Source: Candidatus Aenigmatarchaeota archaeon (lineage in GTDB: Archaea > Aenigmatarchaeota > Aenigmatarchaeia > GW2011-AR5). Taken from it: DNA of 64,000 bases. Of the stretch, positions 9,041-33,248 are shown piece by piece; positions within the stretch are counted from its first letter, which is position 1; each line of letters begins with the position of its first letter. Below the pieces are notes generated by a model, which worked only from the letters and a program-made list of their open reading frames with translations, did not search any database and had not been told where the DNA came from. The stretch is taken from contig JACPJW010000001.1 of the NCBI GenBank assembly GCA_016187335.1, positions 608,001-672,000 on the forward strand, written 5' to 3'. A program made the translations under genes and the position numbers.

Positions 9041-9212
9041 ACCTATCTTCAGATTCATGGTTAGCAAAGCTAACCTGAATCTCCAAGATAACTCTGTTAT
9101 CTTAGGAGATGGTGGTATTAAAGTGGTATGTTCTGTATAACATAATCCACAAATAAAATATGTGGTATTTCTCCGAAATACCACCGACTTTAGTCGGTGG
9201 ATTATGTTTATA
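9041..9212. mobile_element. Orphan IS200/IS605- or HEARO-like multi-hairpin element, copy B (inverted relative to A)
   Basis: CCACCGACTTTAGTCGGTGG at 9181, GTGGTATTTC/GAAATACCAC, outer CATAATCCAC/GTGGATTATG stem. Confidence 0.6.
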
Positions 9213-9230
9213 GAACTTTTCTGAAAAGTT

Positions 9231-10022
9231 CTAATCCTTAAGAAATTCAAGAATCCTGCTGTGCAGATTCCGGTTGGACGCCACGAGACCTGAATCAAGC
9301 GATTTTAAATCCCATAGGGAACCGCCGAACGTGGTCAGCAGACCGCCGGCTTCCTCTAAAATCAGCCCGGCGGCTGCAATATCCCACGGGTTTGTTCTCA
9401 TCACGAGGCAGGCTTCAATCCTTCCGCAGGCAACGCTGCATGCATCCAGTGCAAGGGCGTTGAAGACTTTAGTCCCCTGGGAGAGAGTCGCAAACTTGCC
9501 TGCAATCTGGGCTAATCTCATTATTTCTTCGTTGCCGCCGCCGAAGCAGTAACACATAAGCGCTTCATCCATTTTGTTTGTTTTTGAAACAGAAATTTTT
9601 CCTTTTATTCCATGCTTCCTGTTTTCAAGGAAAGCGCCCTCCCCACGCTCGGCATAAAACAAGTCTTCGTTGTAAGGATCATAAACAACACCTGTTAAAG
9701 GCTTGTTTTTGTGAAAAAGCGCCATGGACACGCAGAAGTACGGGAAGCCGTGGGCAAAGTTCATGGTGCCGTCCAAAGGGTCTATATACCATATAAAATC
9801 CGAAGCTCCGCTGGATCCCGACTCTTCGGCAATTACAGCATGGCCGGGAAATCTTTTCCTGATCCGGGCTATTATGAATTTCTCCGATTCCATGTCGGCT
9901 TTCGTCAGAAGCGAGCGCTTGTCCTTTAGACTATAACTTACTTTTCCAAAATGCTTCATCAGAATAGCGCCGGCTTTCTTTGCGGTTTGTATTGCAAAAG
10001 AAAGTTCCCCGCTTTGGCGCAT
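9231..10022 (-). CDS. suhB: Inositol monophosphatase/FBPase family protein
   Basis: WYIDPLDGTMNF and WDIAAAGLILEEAGG. Confidence 0.9.
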   Translation of the reverse strand: MRQSGELSFAIQTAKKAGAILMKHFGKVSYSLKDKRSLLTKADMESEKFIIARIRKRFPGHAVIAEESGSSGASDFIWYIDPLDGTMNFAHGFPYFCVSMALFHKNKPLTGVVYDPYNEDLFYAERGEGAFLENRKHGIKGKISVSKTNKMDEALMCYCFGGGNEEIMRLAQIAGKFATLSQGTKVFNALALDACSVACGRIEACLVMRTNPWDIAAAGLILEEAGGLLTTFGGSLWDLKSLDSGLVASNRNLHSRILEFLKD

Positions 10023-20484: not shown

Positions 20485-20670
20485 TTAAACAGTATCCAGA
20501 GGGCTCTTATCAATGAACCTCTTTATGCAGAATACATAGGTTTTGGCTGTTTTTTCGCTGTACCTTCTTCTTTTGCATTCCCTTATGACAGCTTGTTCAA
20601 TGTCTACTGGAACGTAAGACATGTTTATCATTGCGTCATAAAGCATTAAAATTTGTAAAGGCGTTCTCAA
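20485..20670 (-). pseudogene. Truncated tyrosine recombinase (IntI/Xer-type N-terminal SAM-like domain only)
   Basis: ECKRRRYSEKTAKTYVFCIKRF resembles the integrase N-terminal motif; stops after about 45 codons with no catalytic domain; divergent from the cassette array. Confidence 0.7.
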
Positions 20671-20689
20671 AAAAACGCCCTTTCAGGTC

Positions 20690-20736
20690 GTTTTAAGTGA
20701 AAATCTTCAGATTTTCGCTAAAAGTCTGTTATACGA
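20690..20736 (+). other. attI-like recombination site
   Basis: ...CGCTAAAAGTCT|GTTATAC; GTT core at 20728; resembles attI1 CCCTAAAACAAAGTT; lies between integrase remnant and first cassette. Confidence 0.55.
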
Positions 20737-20794
20737 AATAATGCTCGAGACTCAGAAAGATAAATTTATAAAGAATTAATTATTAATTAGACGT

Positions 20795-21049
20795 ATGGAT
20801 ATATTTACAATTATAGGGTTAGTTGCGGCAACATGTACAACTATTTCGTTTGTACCTCAAGCAATTAGAATCATAAAAACCAAACAGACAAAAGATTTGT
20901 CATTAGCGATGTATTCAATATTCACAACCGGAATATTTTTATGGTTAGTTTATGGAATTCTTGTTAAAGATTTACCTTTAATAATTGCAAACGCAATAAC
21001 ACTATTATTTACTTCTACTATTCTAATTTTAAAAATTAAATATAAGTAA
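20795..21049 (+). CDS. SemiSWEET/PQ-loop sugar transporter (cassette 1)
   Basis: 84 aa, 3 TM, SFVPQA, TKDLS, WLVYG. Confidence 0.88.
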   Translation: MDIFTIIGLVAATCTTISFVPQAIRIIKTKQTKDLSLAMYSIFTTGIFLWLVYGILVKDLPLIIANAITLLFTSTILILKIKYK

Positions 21050-21106
21050 CCGTCTCGAGCATTACTCAAGGGGACGCTGCGCTTTCGTCGCTATCGCTCC
21101 CCACCC

Positions 21107-21127
21107 TCGTATAACAAGGGTTAGCAG
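21107..21127 (+). other. Collapsed attC-like junction between cassettes 1 and 2
   Basis: TCGTATAAC-AAGG-GTTAGCAG; both R cores present, inner stem absent. Confidence 0.6.
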
Positions 21128-21179
21128 AAATGCTTGCAAGCCGCAAATGTTATTAATGTTTTTTCTTCAAATATAAGAC

Positions 21180-21839
21180 ATGTTAAAAGGCATAATATTT
21201 GATTTAGATGGTGTACTAGTTGATACGGAATCATATCAATGGCTTGGCTGGGTTGAAGTATTGAAACCATATGGTATTACTTTGCATAAACAAGAATACA
21301 TTTTGAAATATGCCGGCAAAACCGGAACTATTATCGAAAGTGAATTGTTAAAAAGATATGGACTAGATGCTGTGGATGGAGCGCTATTGCACAAAAAAGA
21401 AAAATTACTACTTAAATGGTTTAGTGAAAGACAAATTGATTTGATGCCTTATGCAAGAGAATCCGTAGAATTTTTCCATGATAAACGTTTGAAAACCGGA
21501 ATAGTTTCTGGGGGGCCTAGAGATGAAGTTGAATTGAAATTAAAAAGAACTGGACTCCATCCACTATTTCAAACTATAGTATCAAGAAGCGAAGTTGAAA
21601 GAGGAAAACCAAACCCAGATATTTATTTACTTGGTTTAGAAAAACTTGGCTTAGAATCTGCAGATTGCGTTGTTTTTGAAGATACCCAATATGGCGTTGA
21701 AGCTGCTGTAGCGGCAGGTATTACATGTCTGGCTATTCCAAATGAATTTTCCAGAAATCAAGATTTTTCAAAGGCAGATAAAATGTCCAATAACTTAAGA
21801 GAAGCTGTAAATTGGGTAAAGCAAACATATAATCTTTAA
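21180..21839 (+). CDS. HAD-family phosphatase (beta-PGM-like subfamily; cassette 2)
   Basis: FDLDGVLVDTE, GKPNPDIY, VFEDTQYG. Confidence 0.9.
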   Translation: MLKGIIFDLDGVLVDTESYQWLGWVEVLKPYGITLHKQEYILKYAGKTGTIIESELLKRYGLDAVDGALLHKKEKLLLKWFSERQIDLMPYARESVEFFHDKRLKTGIVSGGPRDEVELKLKRTGLHPLFQTIVSRSEVERGKPNPDIYLLGLEKLGLESADCVVFEDTQYGVEAAVAAGITCLAIPNEFSRNQDFSKADKMSNNLREAVNWVKQTYNL

Positions 21840-21891
21840 TGAGGCGGCTCGCTCGCACTCAAAATTGCTTTGCAATTTTGCCCTTTGGGCC

Positions 21892-21971
21892 TGCTAACAG
21901 CCGTTTTACGGAAAATCTCTGGATTTCCCCAAATTCCCTTCGGGAACTTCGTAAAACGGCATACGTTAAGC
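21892..21971 (+). other. attC-like site 2
   Basis: TGCTAAC-A-GCCGTTTTACG...CGTAAAACGGC-ATAC-GTTAAGC, perfect 11-bp inner stem. Confidence 0.75.
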
Positions 21972-22033
21972 GACATATTACTCGGGCGGCGGCTAACGGA
22001 AAGTTTATAAAAATCAATGTAATATTCAATCAT

Positions 22034-22594
22034 ATGAAGAACGCTTTCATATTTCATGGAACTGAGGGATACCCTGAAGAGAATTGGTTTCCTTGGTTAA
22101 AACAAGAATTAGAGAAGTTAGATTACCAAGTCTACGTGCCACATTTTCCATCTCCTCCAAAAATTCCAGCAAAAATATCTGAGTGGTTTGATGTTCTCAA
22201 AAAATATGAGAAATACATAAACGAAGATACAATCCTTATTGGTCATAGTCTTGGTGGAATTTTTACTCTTCGTTTATTGGAGAAATTGGAACATCCTGTT
22301 AAAGCTGGAATTTTTGTTGGTACTCCTATAGGTGTTCGCCCTATTTTAAATTATGATAGGGACAATGGTTTTAGTGGTTTTGATTTTGATTGGAACAATA
22401 TCACAAATAAAGCAAAACATTTTTTGGTGTTCCAATCTGATGATGATCCCTATGTTTCTCCTGGTAATGGCGAACACCTTGCAAAGAATCTAAATGTGGC
22501 ACTAAATTTTGTTCCAAATGCAGGACATTTCAATAAAAGAGCGGGTTACACAAAATTTGACTTGCTACTTGAAAAACTAAAACCAATTCTCTAA
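22034..22594 (+). CDS. RBBP9/YdeN family alpha/beta serine hydrolase (cassette 3)
   Basis: FIFHG...NWFPWL, GHSLG, SDDDPYV, AGHFN; start moved to ATG 22034. Confidence 0.9.
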   Translation: MKNAFIFHGTEGYPEENWFPWLKQELEKLDYQVYVPHFPSPPKIPAKISEWFDVLKKYEKYINEDTILIGHSLGGIFTLRLLEKLEHPVKAGIFVGTPIGVRPILNYDRDNGFSGFDFDWNNITNKAKHFLVFQSDDDPYVSPGNGEHLAKNLNVALNFVPNAGHFNKRAGYTKFDLLLEKLKPIL

Positions 22595-22681
22595 CGCCGC
22601 CGCCCTGCGTCATACGCCTTCGCTCCTTTCAGTCGCTCGGGGGACGCTGCGCTTTCGCTTCACTTCGTTCCGCTCACCCTC

Positions 22682-22781
22682 GCTTAACAAGGGATATACG
22701 GTTCGGGGCTCGGCTCGCCCCTCACCCAAATTTTTCTTCCACTTCGTTCCAGAAAAACTTCGTATATCCCTGACGTTAAAC
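22682..22781 (+). other. attC-like site 3
   Basis: GCTTAAC-A-AGGGATATACG...CGTATATCCCT-GAC-GTTAAAC. Confidence 0.75.
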
Positions 22782-22861
22782 TCAATTGCGAGTCTGCCTC
22801 TTTGAGGTTGCCACCGAAAATAAATCAAAAGATATATTAACACTAAAGCAATATTATCATC

Positions 22862-25531
22862 ATGAAAGGGTTTTTTATTATCTTACTTGTGGCTCTTGTG
22901 TCTGTAAATACGGCTATGGCTGATGATTTGCACATAGAAAGAACAAGCGGGCCTTCGGCAGGCGCGATAAAATTTGGCATGGGTTTTGCAGCTAATGACC
23001 CAGATACCATCTATGTTGACAGGTATAAATCAGTTGATGGTGGAACAACATGGAAAGAAATTGTGCTTCCGCAGGATAATGCTGTTGTAAATCTGGCTGT
23101 TGATCCAAAAGATTCAAAGAAGGTGTATCTTGCCTTCAACAATCAGCTTTACAAAAGTTCTGATGGCGGGACCACATGGCAAAAGCTGGATTCTCTGGGG
23201 CCAGATCCTGAAAGTGAAATGTGGCACGGTGAGGCCATAACTTCCATAGCTATTAGTCCTGACAATGGCGATATTATGCTAGGAGGAACTACGCATGGCG
23301 GATTATACAAATCAACTGACGCCGGAAAAACATGGAAAAATATACCGCTTGGAATCGCAACTCCTGTCAGCAAAATAGCATTCAATCCAAAAAATACACA
23401 AGAAATATATGTTTCAACAGGGCTTTGGTACTGGGATTCTTTGATTGGGAGAAAAGATAAAAAAGGCGATGGTCTATTCAAATCAATTGACGGTGGAGAG
23501 ACATTCTCAAAATTACAGAATGAGTTTGCATCATTTTTAGTGCAGGATGTTGATGTCGTAGGAAATACAATATATGTATCAACGGATTATGCTCCGGACA
23601 GCGAAGAAGAGTGGTATGGTGTTTACAAGTCTGAAGACAGCAGTGCAACATGGCAGAAGATGTGGGACTCGCGCAATAGTGAGGTTGCAAGGATAACTCA
23701 CGTCGCAGTTGATCCTTCAGACAAAAACCATATTATTGTTTCCGGAAGTAATGACAAGCCGTTTTTTCTTTCATATGATGGAGGCACGACATGGAAATAC
23801 CTAGGCCTTGAAGAATCAGAACCGATACAATATACCCACGCCCTGGAATTCACAAATGACGGGAGGGTATATGCTACAACCTATTACAGGCCATTTATGA
23901 AATCTGTTGATGACGGAGAAACATGGAAATGGTTTGCGGAAGGAATAGACAGGAGCACCATTACCTCCCTTGAGCTGCACCCTGCCAATAGAAATGCCGT
24001 TATTGCAGGAACAAAAGACGGGGCTTTGCATATAACTTACGATGGAGGAAAAGTATGGAACAGGTTTTTCGGTGACGAATTTGAAGGCTCCTACATTGCA
24101 GCAATCAAATTCGATCCTTCCAATTCCGGGAAGCTTTATATCGGCGTTTCCGGACCAATGGATGTAAAGACAGGAAGGTACTATGGTGCTCCGTGGCGCG
24201 ATACAGGATTCTATGTCTCAAATGAAGACAATAAATGGACAAAGGCTGTGGGACTGAACCACCCTCAGGAAAAGGATTTCCAATTGGAAATATACGACAT
24301 TCTTATTCTGCCAGAAAATCCAAGGATTATCCTTGTTGCAACGTCTTCAGAAGGTGTTTACAGGAGCGAAGATGGAGGCAAGGCCTGGAAAGAAGCAAAT
24401 GATGGTATACCAAAAGAAGGATTTTATTGGCAATTAAATTTATTGCCTGAGGGGTATACGCCTAGGGAAGAGTGCGAGGAAAGATACAAAAGGTATCAAC
24501 GGGGAGAAAATGTTTTGCCTGGCTGCTTTTATTATGCGACACACACATCAATGAGCCTTTTTGTCAATCCGCACAATGAAAACGAGATTTGGTACACAAC
24601 ATTGGAAGGCATTTTCGTTTCTGAGGACTCTGGCAAGACTTGGAGATGGCTGTCTGATGATTTAAGGAACATCCATGCCCATTACATGGCTTTTGATCCC
24701 GAAGATCCCAATACAATTTATGTAGGCACCCATCAGGGAGCAATAGACGATAATGGCAATGTCATCAACTCTTCCCGGGGATTGCTGATTTCCCGCGATA
24801 GGGGAAAGACCTGGATACAGGTGACCAATGGACCTGGAGAAGGATATGACGTCAGGGCAATAGCAGTAAGCCCCAAAAATCCAAATCTTGTCGTTGTCGG
24901 CACCAATGATCCTTTGTTTATCAGTGAGGATAAAGGTCTAACATGGAAACAAGTGACTGTGGAAGGCAATTTACTGAAAGAGGCAGATAAAATAAAAATA
25001 GACAGCACGGCGAATGTTATTTATTTGGGCACTGGCGACACAGGAGTTTGGAGGGGTATCATAGACTACAATTCTGCCAGCCCTGCTTTGCTTGAGATAA
25101 CAGGGGTTCGTCTGCCCCAGAGAATTGAGAAAGGCATATCATTTGATGTAGTTGTATCGGTTGACAATATTGGAGCCAAAAGCGATTCTATGTCATTAAC
25201 TGTGAAGATTGGGCGAAAAGAAATTTCAAAAGAAATTACGCTTGCGCCAACCGAACAGACTGCTTTGAAATTCTCCTTGAATATGGATGAAGCAGGGATT
25301 TATGACATAATTGTGAATGGTTTAAACTATGGACAAATAAGCATTTCTGAAGAACCTGCTGATACTGGAGCATCGGAAACGGACAACACTACTGGCAATA
25401 TAGGGAAAGAGGGCAAGCAAAATATCTTTTTTGACATTTTTGATAAAGTTTTTTGGCCTGTTTTTATTATTATTTTAGTTATAGTTACGTTTTTTGTGTC
25501 CAGAAAAATATATAAGGCCATTAAGAAATAA
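22862..25531 (+). CDS. Secreted BNR/Asp-box beta-propeller (Vps10/sialidase-like) surface protein with CARDB-like domain and C-terminal TM anchor (cassette 4)
   Basis: Signal peptide, about 13 S.DGG.TW-type repeats, VSVDNIG Ig-like segment, TM plus KK tail. Confidence 0.85.
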   Translation: MKGFFIILLVALVSVNTAMADDLHIERTSGPSAGAIKFGMGFAANDPDTIYVDRYKSVDGGTTWKEIVLPQDNAVVNLAVDPKDSKKVYLAFNNQLYKSSDGGTTWQKLDSLGPDPESEMWHGEAITSIAISPDNGDIMLGGTTHGGLYKSTDAGKTWKNIPLGIATPVSKIAFNPKNTQEIYVSTGLWYWDSLIGRKDKKGDGLFKSIDGGETFSKLQNEFASFLVQDVDVVGNTIYVSTDYAPDSEEEWYGVYKSEDSSATWQKMWDSRNSEVARITHVAVDPSDKNHIIVSGSNDKPFFLSYDGGTTWKYLGLEESEPIQYTHALEFTNDGRVYATTYYRPFMKSVDDGETWKWFAEGIDRSTITSLELHPANRNAVIAGTKDGALHITYDGGKVWNRFFGDEFEGSYIAAIKFDPSNSGKLYIGVSGPMDVKTGRYYGAPWRDTGFYVSNEDNKWTKAVGLNHPQEKDFQLEIYDILILPENPRIILVATSSEGVYRSEDGGKAWKEANDGIPKEGFYWQLNLLPEGYTPREECEERYKRYQRGENVLPGCFYYATHTSMSLFVNPHNENEIWYTTLEGIFVSEDSGKTWRWLSDDLRNIHAHYMAFDPEDPNTIYVGTHQGAIDDNGNVINSSRGLLISRDRGKTWIQVTNGPGEGYDVRAIAVSPKNPNLVVVGTNDPLFISEDKGLTWKQVTVEGNLLKEADKIKIDSTANVIYLGTGDTGVWRGIIDYNSASPALLEITGVRLPQRIEKGISFDVVVSVDNIGAKSDSMSLTVKIGRKEISKEITLAPTEQTALKFSLNMDEAGIYDIIVNGLNYGQISISEEPADTGASETDNTTGNIGKEGKQNIFFDIFDKVFWPVFIIILVIVTFFVSRKIYKAIKK

Positions 25532-25668
25532 GACACTGCATTTTAATGAGTGTGGCAATTCCTTAAAGAAAAAACTACGGCAACAACGAATTTTCGGCGG
25601 ACTCGCAACTCGAAATTTTTCCCTTCGGGAACGTTGCACTAAAATTTCGTCCTCCCTTCGGTCAGAGA

Positions 25669-25756
25669 GCATAACAGGCATTAACCGACTACGCTCGGTT
25701 GCACCTCGCTCCGTCCAAATCGCCTTCGGCGACTTCGGTTAATGCCGATGTTAAAT
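25669..25756 (+). other. attC-like site 4
   Basis: GCATAAC-A-GGCATTAACCG...CGGTTAATGCC-GAT-GTTAAAT. Confidence 0.75.
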
Positions 25757-25803
25757 GAAATGGAAAGGCAAAGCTTAAAAAATGTGTTTACTTAATTAAC
25801 TGT

Positions 25804-26013
25804 ATGGCACAAAAATCCCAACAGAGTTATGGAAGATTAGGCTACTTAATATTAGGAATATTGATATTGTTTGGTGGCATTGCATTTGGAACTTATATTA
25901 TCAACTTAGTATCTCCTTTTTCAGAAACTGTGAATTTTATCATAGCTTTAATTACAATGGTTGGGATTTTTGATACATTTGTTAAACCTTTTTTGAGGAA
26001 AAAATTTCAGTGA
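25804..26013 (+). CDS. 69-aa 2-TM membrane protein (cassette 5)
   Basis: Two hydrophobic helices; paralog of 10801-11013. Confidence 0.75.
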   Translation: MAQKSQQSYGRLGYLILGILILFGGIAFGTYIINLVSPFSETVNFIIALITMVGIFDTFVKPFLRKKFQ

Positions 26014-26271
26014 CGCTTTGCCTTTCCACTCTGCGCTCCCTTCGGTCGCTTGGGGACGTTGCACTTTCGCTTCGCTCACCTCATTTAACAGGAATTATGA
26101 GGAAAATCCCTTGCAGGAATCTTCCCAAATTTGCTCCGCAAACTTCGCCAAACTGCCGAGTTGAATTCAATTGCTCGGCAGAAATATTGCGAGGGGGTCG
26201 GCTCGGCAAAGAAAGGATAAAAGACAATAAAATGTCCGGGTTTATAAATTAATCAAGCCAATTAAATTATC

Positions 26272-26712
26272 GTGGAGAAGACAAAAATCCCCGCTGTTCT
26301 GCAGAAGCGCACGGGATTCATACTTCTGGGCGCGCTCCTTTTTCTTGATACTGTCTTTGATGTCATGAGGGGCACCCAGGGAAATCCTTTGTACAAGCCC
26401 GTTGAGAACGCATTCGGCATATGGGGTCTTCCGCTTCTGGTGCCGTTTGCCTTGGCATTCTTTTACCTCGTCGTGAAGGCAGCGGGCTGGCTGGTGGAAA
26501 AATTTGACAGGGTGCCTTACGGCGAAGAGATTATCCTGACAGCCCTCGTGCTGATTTTCGCGGTTCATGACTTATGGGTGTTTTCCGTGGATTACCTTGG
26601 CTTACGGATTGTCAGCAGCTATTACCAGATGATTCCCGTTTATGTCGCTGTCGGGCTGGCGTACGGTCTGTGGGCGGAACATGTTATAAAGCGCAAAGGG
26701 AAAACGGAATGA
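26272..26712 (+). CDS. Hypothetical 4-TM membrane protein
   Basis: 146-aa hydrophobic ORF. Confidence 0.7.
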   Translation: MEKTKIPAVLQKRTGFILLGALLFLDTVFDVMRGTQGNPLYKPVENAFGIWGLPLLVPFALAFFYLVVKAAGWLVEKFDRVPYGEEIILTALVLIFAVHDLWVFSVDYLGLRIVSSYYQMIPVYVAVGLAYGLWAEHVIKRKGKTE

Positions 26713-29750: not shown

Positions 29751-32700
29751 CTACGACTCGCACAGCCCGAACCCGCACTGCCCGCACTCAAAGCAGCCTT
29801 CCTTTGCCGTCAGCGGGATGTCGCAGTTGGGGCACTGCTTTGCAGCGGAACTGTGCGTCTGCGTCATGGTTTCTGTCTTGCCCGTTGTCAGCGTTGTCAG
29901 GACAGAAACAGCCTTTGGCTTCTCTTCCTTCTTTTCCTTGACAAGATGAAGGACTTCTGTTTCCCTGCTTCCGCTGCGGTATACTGTCAAAGATTTGCAC
30001 CCGAGCTGCCATCCCAGCAGGTACGCCTTGAGCACATCCTCCTTCGTCGCGCTGTTCGGGAAATTGCACGTCTTGCTGATGCTGTTGTCGGTACGCTTCT
30101 GGAACGCCGCCTGGGTTCTGACATGGTCCTCTGCCATTATGTCCATGGACGTGACGAAGACACGCCTGATGTCCTCGGGTATTTCCGGTATGCCCTGCAC
30201 CGTGCCTTCCGCGACAATCCTTTGCATCATCTCCTCGGAATACAAGCCCCTTTCTTTCAATTCATCCTCAAAAATGCTGTTTACGTAGAACAGCGACTGG
30301 CTGCCCATGACCTGCGACTTCTGGTAAACCAAAGCGAAATAAGGCTCGATGCCCGATGACACGTCGCATATCATGCTGATGGTGCCCGTAGGCGCAATTG
30401 ATGTTAATGCTGCATTGCGCATCCTCACGCCGCTCTTTGCAAACACACTTCTGTGCCAGTTAGGAAATACCCCTTTCTCTTCGGCTAGCTCCCTGCTCAT
30501 TTCATGCGCCGCATCATTGATGAAAGCCATGACTTTTTCCGCCATGGCGAAGCCCTCCGGAGAATTGTACGGCACGCGCAATTTCAGCAGCATGTCTGCG
30601 AATCCCATGACGCCCAGACCAACGCGCCGGTTCGCGCGCATAGTTACCGCTACGCGCTCAACAGGGAAATCCGTGATGTCAACGACGTTGTCGAGCATCC
30701 TCACGGAAAGCCTTGTGACCTCGCGCAGGCGCTCCCAGTCAATTCCTGCGTCAGCAGTAACAAATCTGTCAAGGTTTATTGAGCCAAGGTTGCAGACGTC
30801 GCCGTCGTGAAGCATTTGCTCGCCACAATTTGATACTACAAATCCGTTGGCAATGAAAGAATGCGTCGCCGGCTCCGTAAGGTCATAAACGTCTTTTTTG
30901 CCTGCATATTCAATTGTTTTTATTTTGTCTGTGAATTTCTCCACGCGGAGTTTTTTCTGCAGAATCCGCTGCATTTTTTCTTTGTGTTTGTTGCAGAGGA
31001 AGCCGATCTCCCTGGAGAATTTTTCTATGCTTTTGCCGTGTATGTTCACTTCGAAGAGGACACCGTCAGTTTCATAAGTTCTCAGCAAACCGGCCTTTGT
31101 TGTGTAGGAGAACTGTTTTCTGCTTTCCCTGCTACTGTCATATACTTGCGACAATATTCCCAAATTAAGCAGGAGAAGCTGCACCTGCTTCGCAAGTTTT
31201 ATGGATTTTGTTGTAAGACGCACGTAGTAATTGCCCTTTTTCTCATCCAGCATTACGGTGCCGTCTGATGAGAACAATCCCTGCAAAAATCCGGAAACCG
31301 CTTCCTTAGGCGCGGCAAAAATCGCTTCCGGAATTTCCTTTTCGCCTGCCTTTGATGTTTTCACGCCAATTCTTTTTAAATACTCAACAAAATGTTTCGA
31401 GCCGTAGTTCAGGTGGTAGGTGTTTCTCTGCCTTTCGATTTCCTTCATGCTGCGGCCGTAAATTTTGTTCCCGATTGTTTTGATATGCCCAAGTATTTCT
31501 TTGTCGTCTTTGCCGAAAGTTAAGCCAACCATCCATTCTTTTTCCTTGTCCCTTATCCAGCCGTCGCCGACAAGCCAGCCGAGGAACTGCCCGAGTTCCC
31601 TTGTCCATTCATCAGGGAAGTTGTATCTATACGTTCTGCCGTTATTGCCGACGAACACGTTCTGGACATCGAAAGGCAGTTTCGGGTTTACGCTGAACCT
31701 GCCCTCGCCGCCCTGTATCAGGATTTCCTCGTCGTGAAGATCTTCAGCCTTAACCCATCCTTTCGTTGTCATGATTTTGTGGTCGGATGTGACTTCCAAT
31801 TCATAACCCGAATCAGTCTCTATTTTCCATATGTCTTTGTGCCCGGTTTTCCATGCATTTGAAATGCTGTTGAGATGCGTGCCCACCGTTTCCTTGTATA
31901 TCAGAGTTTTTGTGCCGTCGGCATTCAGCAGTTCCACGGGCATCCTGTTGTCGCATACAACGGATAACCCGCCTTCGCTGTATTTTTCAGCCAGCGTTTC
32001 CATTTTTACAAATCCGTGCTCAGTGCTCACCAGCGAATCGCCCGTTACGCACGGATTGCACGCCTCTATCCTTCCAACGCCCGGCAGCGGGTTCGTGTCG
32101 TTGACATGGTCAATGAAAATCACGCCGGGCTCTCCGTTGCGCCACGCGGCATTAACGATTTCTTCCATCAGCTCGCGCGGCGTTATGGTTTCTTCCTTTA
32201 TGTCTAATATCGTGTCGTACTGGTCGCGCTCAATTCTTCTCGGCTTCATCTTCATGCCGTTCCATTCGCAGAGCCAGGGCTCGCTGTCGCCGCTGAGCAC
32301 TTTTTCCATGAAATCGTCGGTTACAGCCACGGAAATGTTGAAGTTGCGGATGTCGCCTTCTCGCGCCTTGCAGTGGATGAATTCCAGGATGTCCGGGTGA
32401 TCCACCCTCATCACGGCCATGTTCGCGCCGTGACGTCCCTGCTGCTTTATCACGCCGAAAGCCTTGTCGTAAACCCTGAGGAAAGATACGGGGCCTGATG
32501 CCACGCCCCTGCTTTTTTTTGCCATCGTGCCTGCAGGCCTGAGAAGGTGGAAAGGAAAGCCCAGTCCGCTGCCTGCCTGCTGCAGCAGCGAAGCATCCTT
32601 CAGCGTCTGGAATATTCCGTCCATGCTGTCCTCCATGTGCAGGACAATGCAGTTGGCAACAACCCGCGTGGGCGCGCCGGCGTTGGCTAGCGTGCGCCCG

Positions 32701-33248
32701 GCCGGCAGGAATTCCATGTTTGTCATTATGCCGTAAAATTCTTCCTTGAACTTTCTTGCTTCGTTGTCGTTCTTGCCATATTTCCTTTCCACGTCAGCCA
32801 GCGTCCTTGAAACGCGCTCGAACATCTGCTCCGGCGTCTCCATTATCTGGCCGTTCTCGTCCCTTGCCAAATAGCGGCCGGCGATGATTTTTATCGCGTT
32901 CAGACTCAGCTTCTTGTGCAGCCTTGTGTCCTTTCCGTTGAGCAGTCTTTTGATTTCCTCGCGTATCCCGGCGCGCTCCTGCCTGTATAAAATATAAGTT
33001 TTGGCAGTTTTCGCGTGCCCTTCTTCTATGAGCGTTTTTTCAACAGCGTCCTGTACCTCTTCGATATTGGGTATATGCCCGTCCGCGCACTGCTTTTCCA
33101 GCTGCGCGACGACCTTGTCAGCCAAGCTGTTGGCGAGGGAGCGGTCCGTGCCGCCCACGGACAAAGCCGCCTTGAAAATGGCGTCAGCTATCTTTGTCTT
33201 GTCAAAAGGAGCAATTCTGCCGTCTCTCTTCTTTATCTTCGTCAGCAT
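29751..33248 (-). CDS. nrdJ: Class II (AdoCbl) ribonucleotide reductase with N-terminal ATP cone and intein
   Basis: KIKKRDGR ATP cone, FLPAGRTL, ANCIV, NP|C-intein-N|CGEQ, CNLGS, IAPTG, C-terminal Cys pairs. Confidence 0.95.
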   Translation of the reverse strand: MLTKIKKRDGRIAPFDKTKIADAIFKAALSVGGTDRSLANSLADKVVAQLEKQCADGHIPNIEEVQDAVEKTLIEEGHAKTAKTYILYRQERAGIREEIKRLLNGKDTRLHKKLSLNAIKIIAGRYLARDENGQIMETPEQMFERVSRTLADVERKYGKNDNEARKFKEEFYGIMTNMEFLPAGRTLANAGAPTRVVANCIVLHMEDSMDGIFQTLKDASLLQQAGSGLGFPFHLLRPAGTMAKKSRGVASGPVSFLRVYDKAFGVIKQQGRHGANMAVMRVDHPDILEFIHCKAREGDIRNFNISVAVTDDFMEKVLSGDSEPWLCEWNGMKMKPRRIERDQYDTILDIKEETITPRELMEEIVNAAWRNGEPGVIFIDHVNDTNPLPGVGRIEACNPCVTGDSLVSTEHGFVKMETLAEKYSEGGLSVVCDNRMPVELLNADGTKTLIYKETVGTHLNSISNAWKTGHKDIWKIETDSGYELEVTSDHKIMTTKGWVKAEDLHDEEILIQGGEGRFSVNPKLPFDVQNVFVGNNGRTYRYNFPDEWTRELGQFLGWLVGDGWIRDKEKEWMVGLTFGKDDKEILGHIKTIGNKIYGRSMKEIERQRNTYHLNYGSKHFVEYLKRIGVKTSKAGEKEIPEAIFAAPKEAVSGFLQGLFSSDGTVMLDEKKGNYYVRLTTKSIKLAKQVQLLLLNLGILSQVYDSSRESRKQFSYTTKAGLLRTYETDGVLFEVNIHGKSIEKFSREIGFLCNKHKEKMQRILQKKLRVEKFTDKIKTIEYAGKKDVYDLTEPATHSFIANGFVVSNCGEQMLHDGDVCNLGSINLDRFVTADAGIDWERLREVTRLSVRMLDNVVDITDFPVERVAVTMRANRRVGLGVMGFADMLLKLRVPYNSPEGFAMAEKVMAFINDAAHEMSRELAEEKGVFPNWHRSVFAKSGVRMRNAALTSIAPTGTISMICDVSSGIEPYFALVYQKSQVMGSQSLFYVNSIFEDELKERGLYSEEMMQRIVAEGTVQGIPEIPEDIRRVFVTSMDIMAEDHVRTQAAFQKRTDNSISKTCNFPNSATKEDVLKAYLLGWQLGCKSLTVYRSGSRETEVLHLVKEKKEEKPKAVSVLTTLTTGKTETMTQTHSSAAKQCPNCDIPLTAKEGCFECGQCGFGLCES
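30828..32051 (-). mobile_element. LAGLIDADG intein (408 aa) in the NrdJ active-site loop
   Basis: Starts CVTGDSLV, ends HSFIANGFVVSN followed by Cys; blocks FLGWLVGDGW and FLQGLFSSDG. Confidence 0.93.

Follow-up and report, generated by a model that had tools for sequence, protein, structure and literature searches.

Which kind of genetic platform is represented by a row of genes, each with its own complementary ends, that follows the remains of a tyrosine-recombinase gene in a small archaeal genome? The question is raised by a 64,000-nt stretch of DNA from Candidatus Aenigmatarchaeota archaeon (GCA_016187335.1, contig JACPJW010000001.1, positions 608,001-672,000 of the forward strand; hereafter the window), in which five plus-strand genes are co-oriented behind an attI-like docking site that ends at 20728. 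A first-pass annotation had described the locus as a cassette-shuffling platform of a DPANN archaeon, and this core holds: same-class genomes encode proteins named Aenigmarchaeota, and relatives display precise cassette insertion at the attI-like site. We consider it likely that the locus is a frozen copy of a chromosomal integron-like gene-capture platform, served by a tyrosine recombinase of ~278 aa without the IntI-specific I2 insertion and by dif-like sites, where one strand pair would be exchanged and replication would resolve the product. It is not a canonical integron, failing two defining tests of one, though it is integron-like in its working.

Cassette mobility is shown by loci that encode an identical enzyme (P0080). 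Two cassettes are missing from L238: one of 860 bp, which L239 has precisely at attI, and one of 673 bp, which L237 has at an internal junction. Judged from the flanks, neither crossover lies more than 4 nt from R|TT, and the inserted cassettes keep their own 6-nt spacer at the 3' end; new cassettes enter beside the recombinase gene. Cassette 3 of the window is moreover 93% identical at the nucleotide level, from the crossover to the far end, to a cassette with other neighbours in a further array (L267). It ends in a short site in L267 and in a long hairpin site in the window, and the long hairpin may be a separately mobile mini-cassette. As the end of the L267 cassette matches that of window cassette 1 over 19 nt, homologous exchange could explain its short end. 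Homologues of cassette 3 with 77% nucleotide identity and similar end motifs are present in an array that NCBI labels Patescibacteria (label taken as given), hinting at a cassette pool common to this array and archaeal ones. Mini-cassettes of 59-200 bp without open reading frames (ORFs), with complementary ends, repeated and sometimes in tandem duplicate, were also seen in L237, L238, L125, L014 and L204, near attI.

The elements in the window are listed below; the remnant, the attI-like site and the five co-oriented genes all lie where the first-pass annotation had placed them.

20485-20622, minus strand: recombinase remnant of 45 aa (ATG at 20622, stop at 20485; aligned with the intact enzymes P0001 and P0002)
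20712-20739, plus strand: attI-like docking site, 11|6|11, crossover 20728|20729 (same site in other arrays; precise insertion in L239 vs L238)
20729-21120, plus strand: cassette 1, SemiSWEET/PQ-loop gene at 20795-21049
20739-20751 / 21052-21064: private inverted repeat of cassette 1
21108-21120: 3' end of cassette 1, a short dif-like junction (junction 1)
21121-21965, plus strand: cassette 2, HAD hydrolase gene at 21180-21839
21131-21144 / 21844-21857: imperfect inverted repeat of cassette 2
from 21892: long hairpin site of cassette 2
21966-22775, plus strand: cassette 3, RBBP9/YdeN-type serine hydrolase gene at 22034-22594
21976-21993 / 22596-22614: imperfect inverted repeat of cassette 3
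from 22682: long hairpin site of cassette 3
22776-25750, plus strand: cassette 4, secreted BNR/sortilin-like beta-propeller gene at 22862-25531 (889 aa)
22786-22798 / 25596-25608: inverted repeat of cassette 4
from 25669: long hairpin site of cassette 4
25751-26160, plus strand: cassette 5, gene for a 69-aa membrane protein at 25804-26013
25761-25774 / 26015-26028: perfect inverted repeat of cassette 5
26082-26160: decayed or chimeric long site of cassette 5 (junction 5; two arms now mismatched, fold z -1.5)
26161-26171, plus strand: right arm of what seems to be a truncated sixth cassette, the array end (fits the right-arm pattern)

The heptamers that open and close each unit had likewise been read correctly, namely GTTATAC/GTATAAC, GTTAGCA/TGCTAAC, GTTAAGC/GCTTAAC and GTTAAAT/ATTTAAC, with GTTAAAC/GCATAAC (two mismatches) in unit 4. 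The cassette genes have a GC content of 26-42% vs 47% for the genome, and the first ORF past the array is host-like at 51%. Compared with phage sequences, the HAD gene yielded matches of only ~30%. Past the array, an 11-bp direct repeat (26211 and 26720; 10 genome copies) flanks the host-like ORF at 26272-26712.

Including the window, the docking site is kept in 13 arrays; in the 12 others it lies just upstream of an intact recombinase gene, 117-236 nt away. In its 11|6|11 layout the crossover falls where the spacer meets the right arm. As expected of an integron, an attI with a G|TT insertion point is present beside the integrase gene. The genes downstream of the enzyme vary among relatives (Kae1, RNase P p29, RIO1, AP endonuclease and ogg), and within 1.5 kb of ogg neither the enzyme nor an array is present in any of 19 relatives. 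Because the neighbours differ and the platform is never near ogg in these relatives, the platform is itself patchy and relocatable. A site-less homologue of the cassette-3 hydrolase, 48% identical, lies divergently beside ogg in a genome of the same family (G020, L253:1642-2196); it may be a coincidence or an old domesticated cassette.

The integron arrangement of tandem cassettes, each with an R'' complementary to its own R', is also present. Across 62 distinct cassettes the start of a cassette matches its own far end at 3.94 of 5 positions, vs 2.34 for the physically adjacent end, and permutation of the pairing gave 2.12±0.13, with none of 10,000 reaching the observed value. Around each of the five cassette genes in the window we further detected a second, private inverted repeat of 13-19 bp, which is imperfect in cassettes 2 and 3 and nearly perfect in the other three. 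Of 45 gene cassettes, 40% have an inner repeat that scores 11/12 or better, vs 0.4% when heads of other cassettes are used; these repeats open 10 nt past the crossover and close directly behind the stop codon, with CTC next in most cases. A TATA-like box precedes the gene in 20 of 28 cassettes, judged against coding sequence, a lenient null.

How do the junctions themselves relate to known recombination sites? Short junctions (AAC, 3-4 nt, R|TT) make up 59 of the 73 examined, and the other 14 are long. A consensus drawn from 40 of the short sites agrees with Escherichia coli dif at 8 of 11 positions in each arm, in a 28-bp 11-6-11 layout, and an A|TT crossover is as common as G|TT. A long site consists of a left half that resembles the short site and an inverted right half; the long sites have a three-way fold in common, with double changes in 14 of 24 pairs. 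Their left spacer measures 4 nt, they lack an extrahelical base, and a bulge of 2-3 nt sits on the opposite arm. The three long hairpins of the window measure 80, 100 and 88 nt with perfect stems of 11-12 bp, and folding of their bottom strands, a check proposed at the outset, gave z -4.1 to -4.3, with none of 200 shuffles as good. The 1.01 Mb genome contains this arrangement (AAC, 1 nt, 11-bp stem, loop, stem, 3-4 nt, GTT) only three times, always in the array and on one strand, and 300 shuffles contain none. The hairpins that the first-pass annotation had seen between units 2-3, 3-4 and 4-5 are real. That their geometry is not that of canonical attCs had been overlooked, and so had the short junction 1, the decayed junction 5 and the private inverted repeats. 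Scored on canonical attC grammar, the 14 long sites attain 2-4 of 7 points vs 6-7 for 13 real attCs. A covariance model built from 15 canonical attCs, itself without base pairs, matched one near-training site and none in the window, and Rfam returned nothing relevant. A loose short-site pattern has ~67 chance matches in the genome and is only modestly above control across 371 genomes; single matches were not counted as evidence. The idea that junction 1 is a damaged attC was dropped, short sites being the norm in relatives. Off the array, lone cassette-type junctions lie beside low-GC genes at L010:5600-6900 (C1 43,613-44,800) and L011:6500-6700 (C2 ~763,600, minus strand), probably orphan cassettes or small integrase-less clusters.

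The remnant ORF matches Phage_int_SAM_4 (E 2e-5), in line with the tyrosine-recombinase N-terminus reported earlier. It is however no plain truncation: alignment with P0001 and P0002 reveals the first ~38 residues of a 276-279-aa protein joined in frame to the last 7, with ~230 codons deleted, the catalytic domain included. The deletion is real, as contigs from three runs of two studies span the join with zero differences, and an assembly artefact is thereby ruled out. No intact copy of this enzyme and no XerC/D-like gene were found in the 91%-complete genome, which encodes just one further tyrosine recombinase, an integrase in a 461-aa frame next to a tRNA gene. With the enzyme gene internally deleted and no intact copy found, the array is probably static in this host. 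The tRNA-linked integrase (L001, C2 737,809-738,315) is the only intact tyrosine recombinase of the genome. It directly follows its tRNA gene, which contains an intron, and carries a CxxC-CxxC motif at its C-terminus, as is typical of integrated elements.

Relatives had been suggested as a source of an intact integrase and of the same sites beside other genes, and both were found. The intact enzymes span 275-280 aa and form at least 120 clusters at ≥65% identity, assigned to Aenigmarchaeota or Woesearchaeota where named. As the remnant has lost the region of the IntI insertion, the insertion was looked for in relatives that are 72-77% identical to the remnant over the N-terminal match. The intact enzymes score 227-231 bits with NF040815 (XerA), above the cut-off of 220, and 208-223 bits with TIGR02249, below the cut-off of 265. 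Alignment to VchIntIA falls into two blocks, 16 residues apart in the enzyme vs 55 in IntI, so ~39 residues are missing and the I2 insertion, in IntI an additional domain around patch III, is absent. Among PDB entries VchIntIA matches best in both sequence and fold, the sequence being slightly nearer IntI than solved XerA, and the predicted fold resembles IntI and XerA about equally. In a midpoint-rooted tree of 95 sequences, with deep branching unresolved, the enzymes group in a clade of their own (100/99), separate from IntI as well as from a sister clade without arrays. The nearest same-order recombinase relative (G045, L013:8124-9163) is apparently frameshifted near its C-terminus, in a partly masked locus.

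Since cassette and attI spacers share only 0.75 of 6 bases, ordinary two-strand exchange is disfavoured. The spacers are nearly non-homologous and each partner keeps its own after insertion; by the established chemistry of tyrosine recombinases, this fits a swap of a single strand pair at the right spacer edge and subsequent replication. The adjacent enzyme would cut the bottom strand only, at AA|Y, and one strand pair would pass between double-stranded attI and a cassette circle. As the cassette ends co-vary, the junction of the circular or folded cassette is likely self-paired, either as a folded single strand or as a palindromic duplex, and would then be resolved by replication, in the manner of CTXφ and IntI. 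The long hairpins may imitate a duplex dif-like site, with the 2-3-nt bulge in place of extrahelical bases. Joining of the cassette ends is probably aided by the private inverted repeats, the least certain step. Given a TATA-like box in front of most cassette genes, no array promoter would be needed.

With integrons, the archaeal ones of Ghaly et al. 2022 (PMC9668308) included, the platform shares the divergent tyrosine recombinase, the adjacent docking site, tandem co-oriented cassettes with complementary ends, the G|TT crossover, and long sites that combine two simple sites in inverted orientation. Unlike them, it has a ~278-aa enzyme without I2, a left spacer of 4 nt rather than 5, a bulge on the opposite arm in place of any extrahelical base, mostly short junctions, frequent A|TT, private inverted repeats and TATA-like boxes of its own. 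The integrative mobile elements exploiting Xer (IMEX) CTXφ and VGJφ, which use XerCD at dif (PMC4792948, PMC5357621), are similar in 11-6-11 dif-like sites, an I2-less enzyme, the inferred single exchange, and a folded site that imitates duplex DNA without extrahelical bases; here, in contrast, a recombinase gene of the platform itself lies next to the docking site, and the cassettes are non-replicating single genes in tandem. Acinetobacter pdif modules (PMC6449649, PMC9455709) also hold accessory genes between dif-like sites in varied contexts, but the present array is chromosomal, with a dedicated single enzyme, sites all in direct orientation and cassette-specific end complementarity. Archaeal XerA/dif (NF040815; PDB 4A8E, 5HXY) resembles it in length, domain content, profile match above cut-off and a dif-like site beside the gene, whereas the platform is patchy and dispensable in the lineage, has multiple variant sites that bound cassettes, and is slightly nearer IntI in sequence.

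Could one of these systems account for the locus on its own? A double-stranded dif-module system, where every junction is a duplex dif site, with hairpins and inverted repeats arising as by-products when cassettes are made, would fit the dif layout of the short sites and attI, the share of short sites among the junctions (59/73), the enzyme score above the XerA cut-off, and the duplex integration of VGJφ despite partial spacer mismatch (PMC5357621). We nevertheless judge it unlikely, as own-end complementarity and compensatory changes in the long stems are unneeded for duplex recognition, and the spacers are almost wholly non-homologous to attI. More doubtful still is that the enzyme is the housekeeping XerA of the host and attI the chromosomal dif, with the cassettes as IMEX-like hitch-hikers stacked there, even though xerA and dif are adjacent in some archaea, as are xerS and difSL (PMC5357621), and NF040815 is matched above cut-off. 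In the host's family an NF040815 gene above cut-off is present in just 4 of 44 genomes (incomplete metagenome-assembled genomes), the gene is broken here with only the tRNA-linked integrase besides, G109 has two Xer-type genes of ~275 aa, and the flanking genes vary among relatives.

The first-pass annotation had equated the sites with attCs of the known kind and the enzyme with an IntI as described by Ghaly et al. 2022, that is, a decayed intI with ordinary attC sites. We see very little room for this. The general layout and G|TT crossover are the same, VchIntIA is the closest structure, and IntI1 still recombines attC mutants without extrahelical bases (PMC5027507); however, the enzyme has no I2 insertion, stays below the TIGR02249 cut-off and falls outside the IntI clade, the sites fail the canonical attC grammar, and most junctions of relatives lack a long hairpin. 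Least credible is a static island whose hairpins are terminators or repeats of the miniature inverted-repeat transposable element (MITE) or repetitive extragenic palindromic (REP) kind. The hairpins do sit behind stop codons and an unrelated family of palindromes is dispersed through the genome, yet the long sites occur nowhere else in the genome, one cassette is common to another array, and no platform lies near ogg in the 19 relatives; the precise cassette indels refute the idea in substance.

Several points also weigh against the integron-like platform that we favour. The covariation set holds related and repeated cassettes, so that the permutation figure overstates independence, and the long sites were picked by an ungapped stem and fit the new grammar by construction. 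A recombinase tetramer would have to find two binding arms in a single-stranded short site that folds to only one stem with a 6-nt loop. Cassette indels come from metagenome assemblies with repeats, and contigs from the three runs of two studies contained no circle or excision joint; the joints listed have sides of at most 31 nt and probably stem from other organisms sharing the site sequence. The role of the adjacent enzyme as catalyst would be guilt by association, and some of its close relatives (L205, L207) have no array upstream.

Archaeal IntIs were defined by their additional domain (Ghaly et al. 2022, PMC9668308). Integron surveys demand this domain and a canonical attC model, and a platform as described here would be missed or called integrase-less. 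IntI uses I2 and extrahelical bases for single exchange, CTXφ uses neither, with a folded site imitating duplex DNA, and the origin of the two IntI features has been called a chicken-and-egg problem (Escudero et al. 2016, PMC4792948). An I2-less enzyme with sites free of extrahelical bases makes this question directly testable by assays already in use for integrons. We tentatively raise, and would not press, the wider proposal of a second, I2-independent integron-like system common to DPANN archaea and Candidate Phyla Radiation (CPR) bacteria, with end-folding cassettes traded across domains; if true, a living Xer-to-integron intermediate would remove the problem. If the platform works as proposed, it would provide tiny symbiotic archaea with a modular route of gene capture. 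We found no description of this system in the literature searched, which left many subscription journals outside; new from the present locus are both site types in one array, one cassette in two contexts, and the frozen state.

The samples are groundwater, and the genes flanking the array (Kae1, RpoE and GluRS) are archaeal. Elsewhere in the genome we noted a dispersed, REP/MITE-like family of intergenic palindromic repeats of ~100-160 bp, unrelated to the array and present in more than 10 copies (window 9107-9212; C2 near 66,300, 128,200, 586,500, 606,700, 723,600, 745,300 and others). A shorter palindrome at window 9213-9231 has tens of genome copies. A class II ribonucleotide reductase with an apparent intein, judged from sequence only, is encoded at window 29751-33248. 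ARAGORN without intron mode recovered only 4 tRNAs genome-wide, which suggests that most tRNA genes of the host carry introns.

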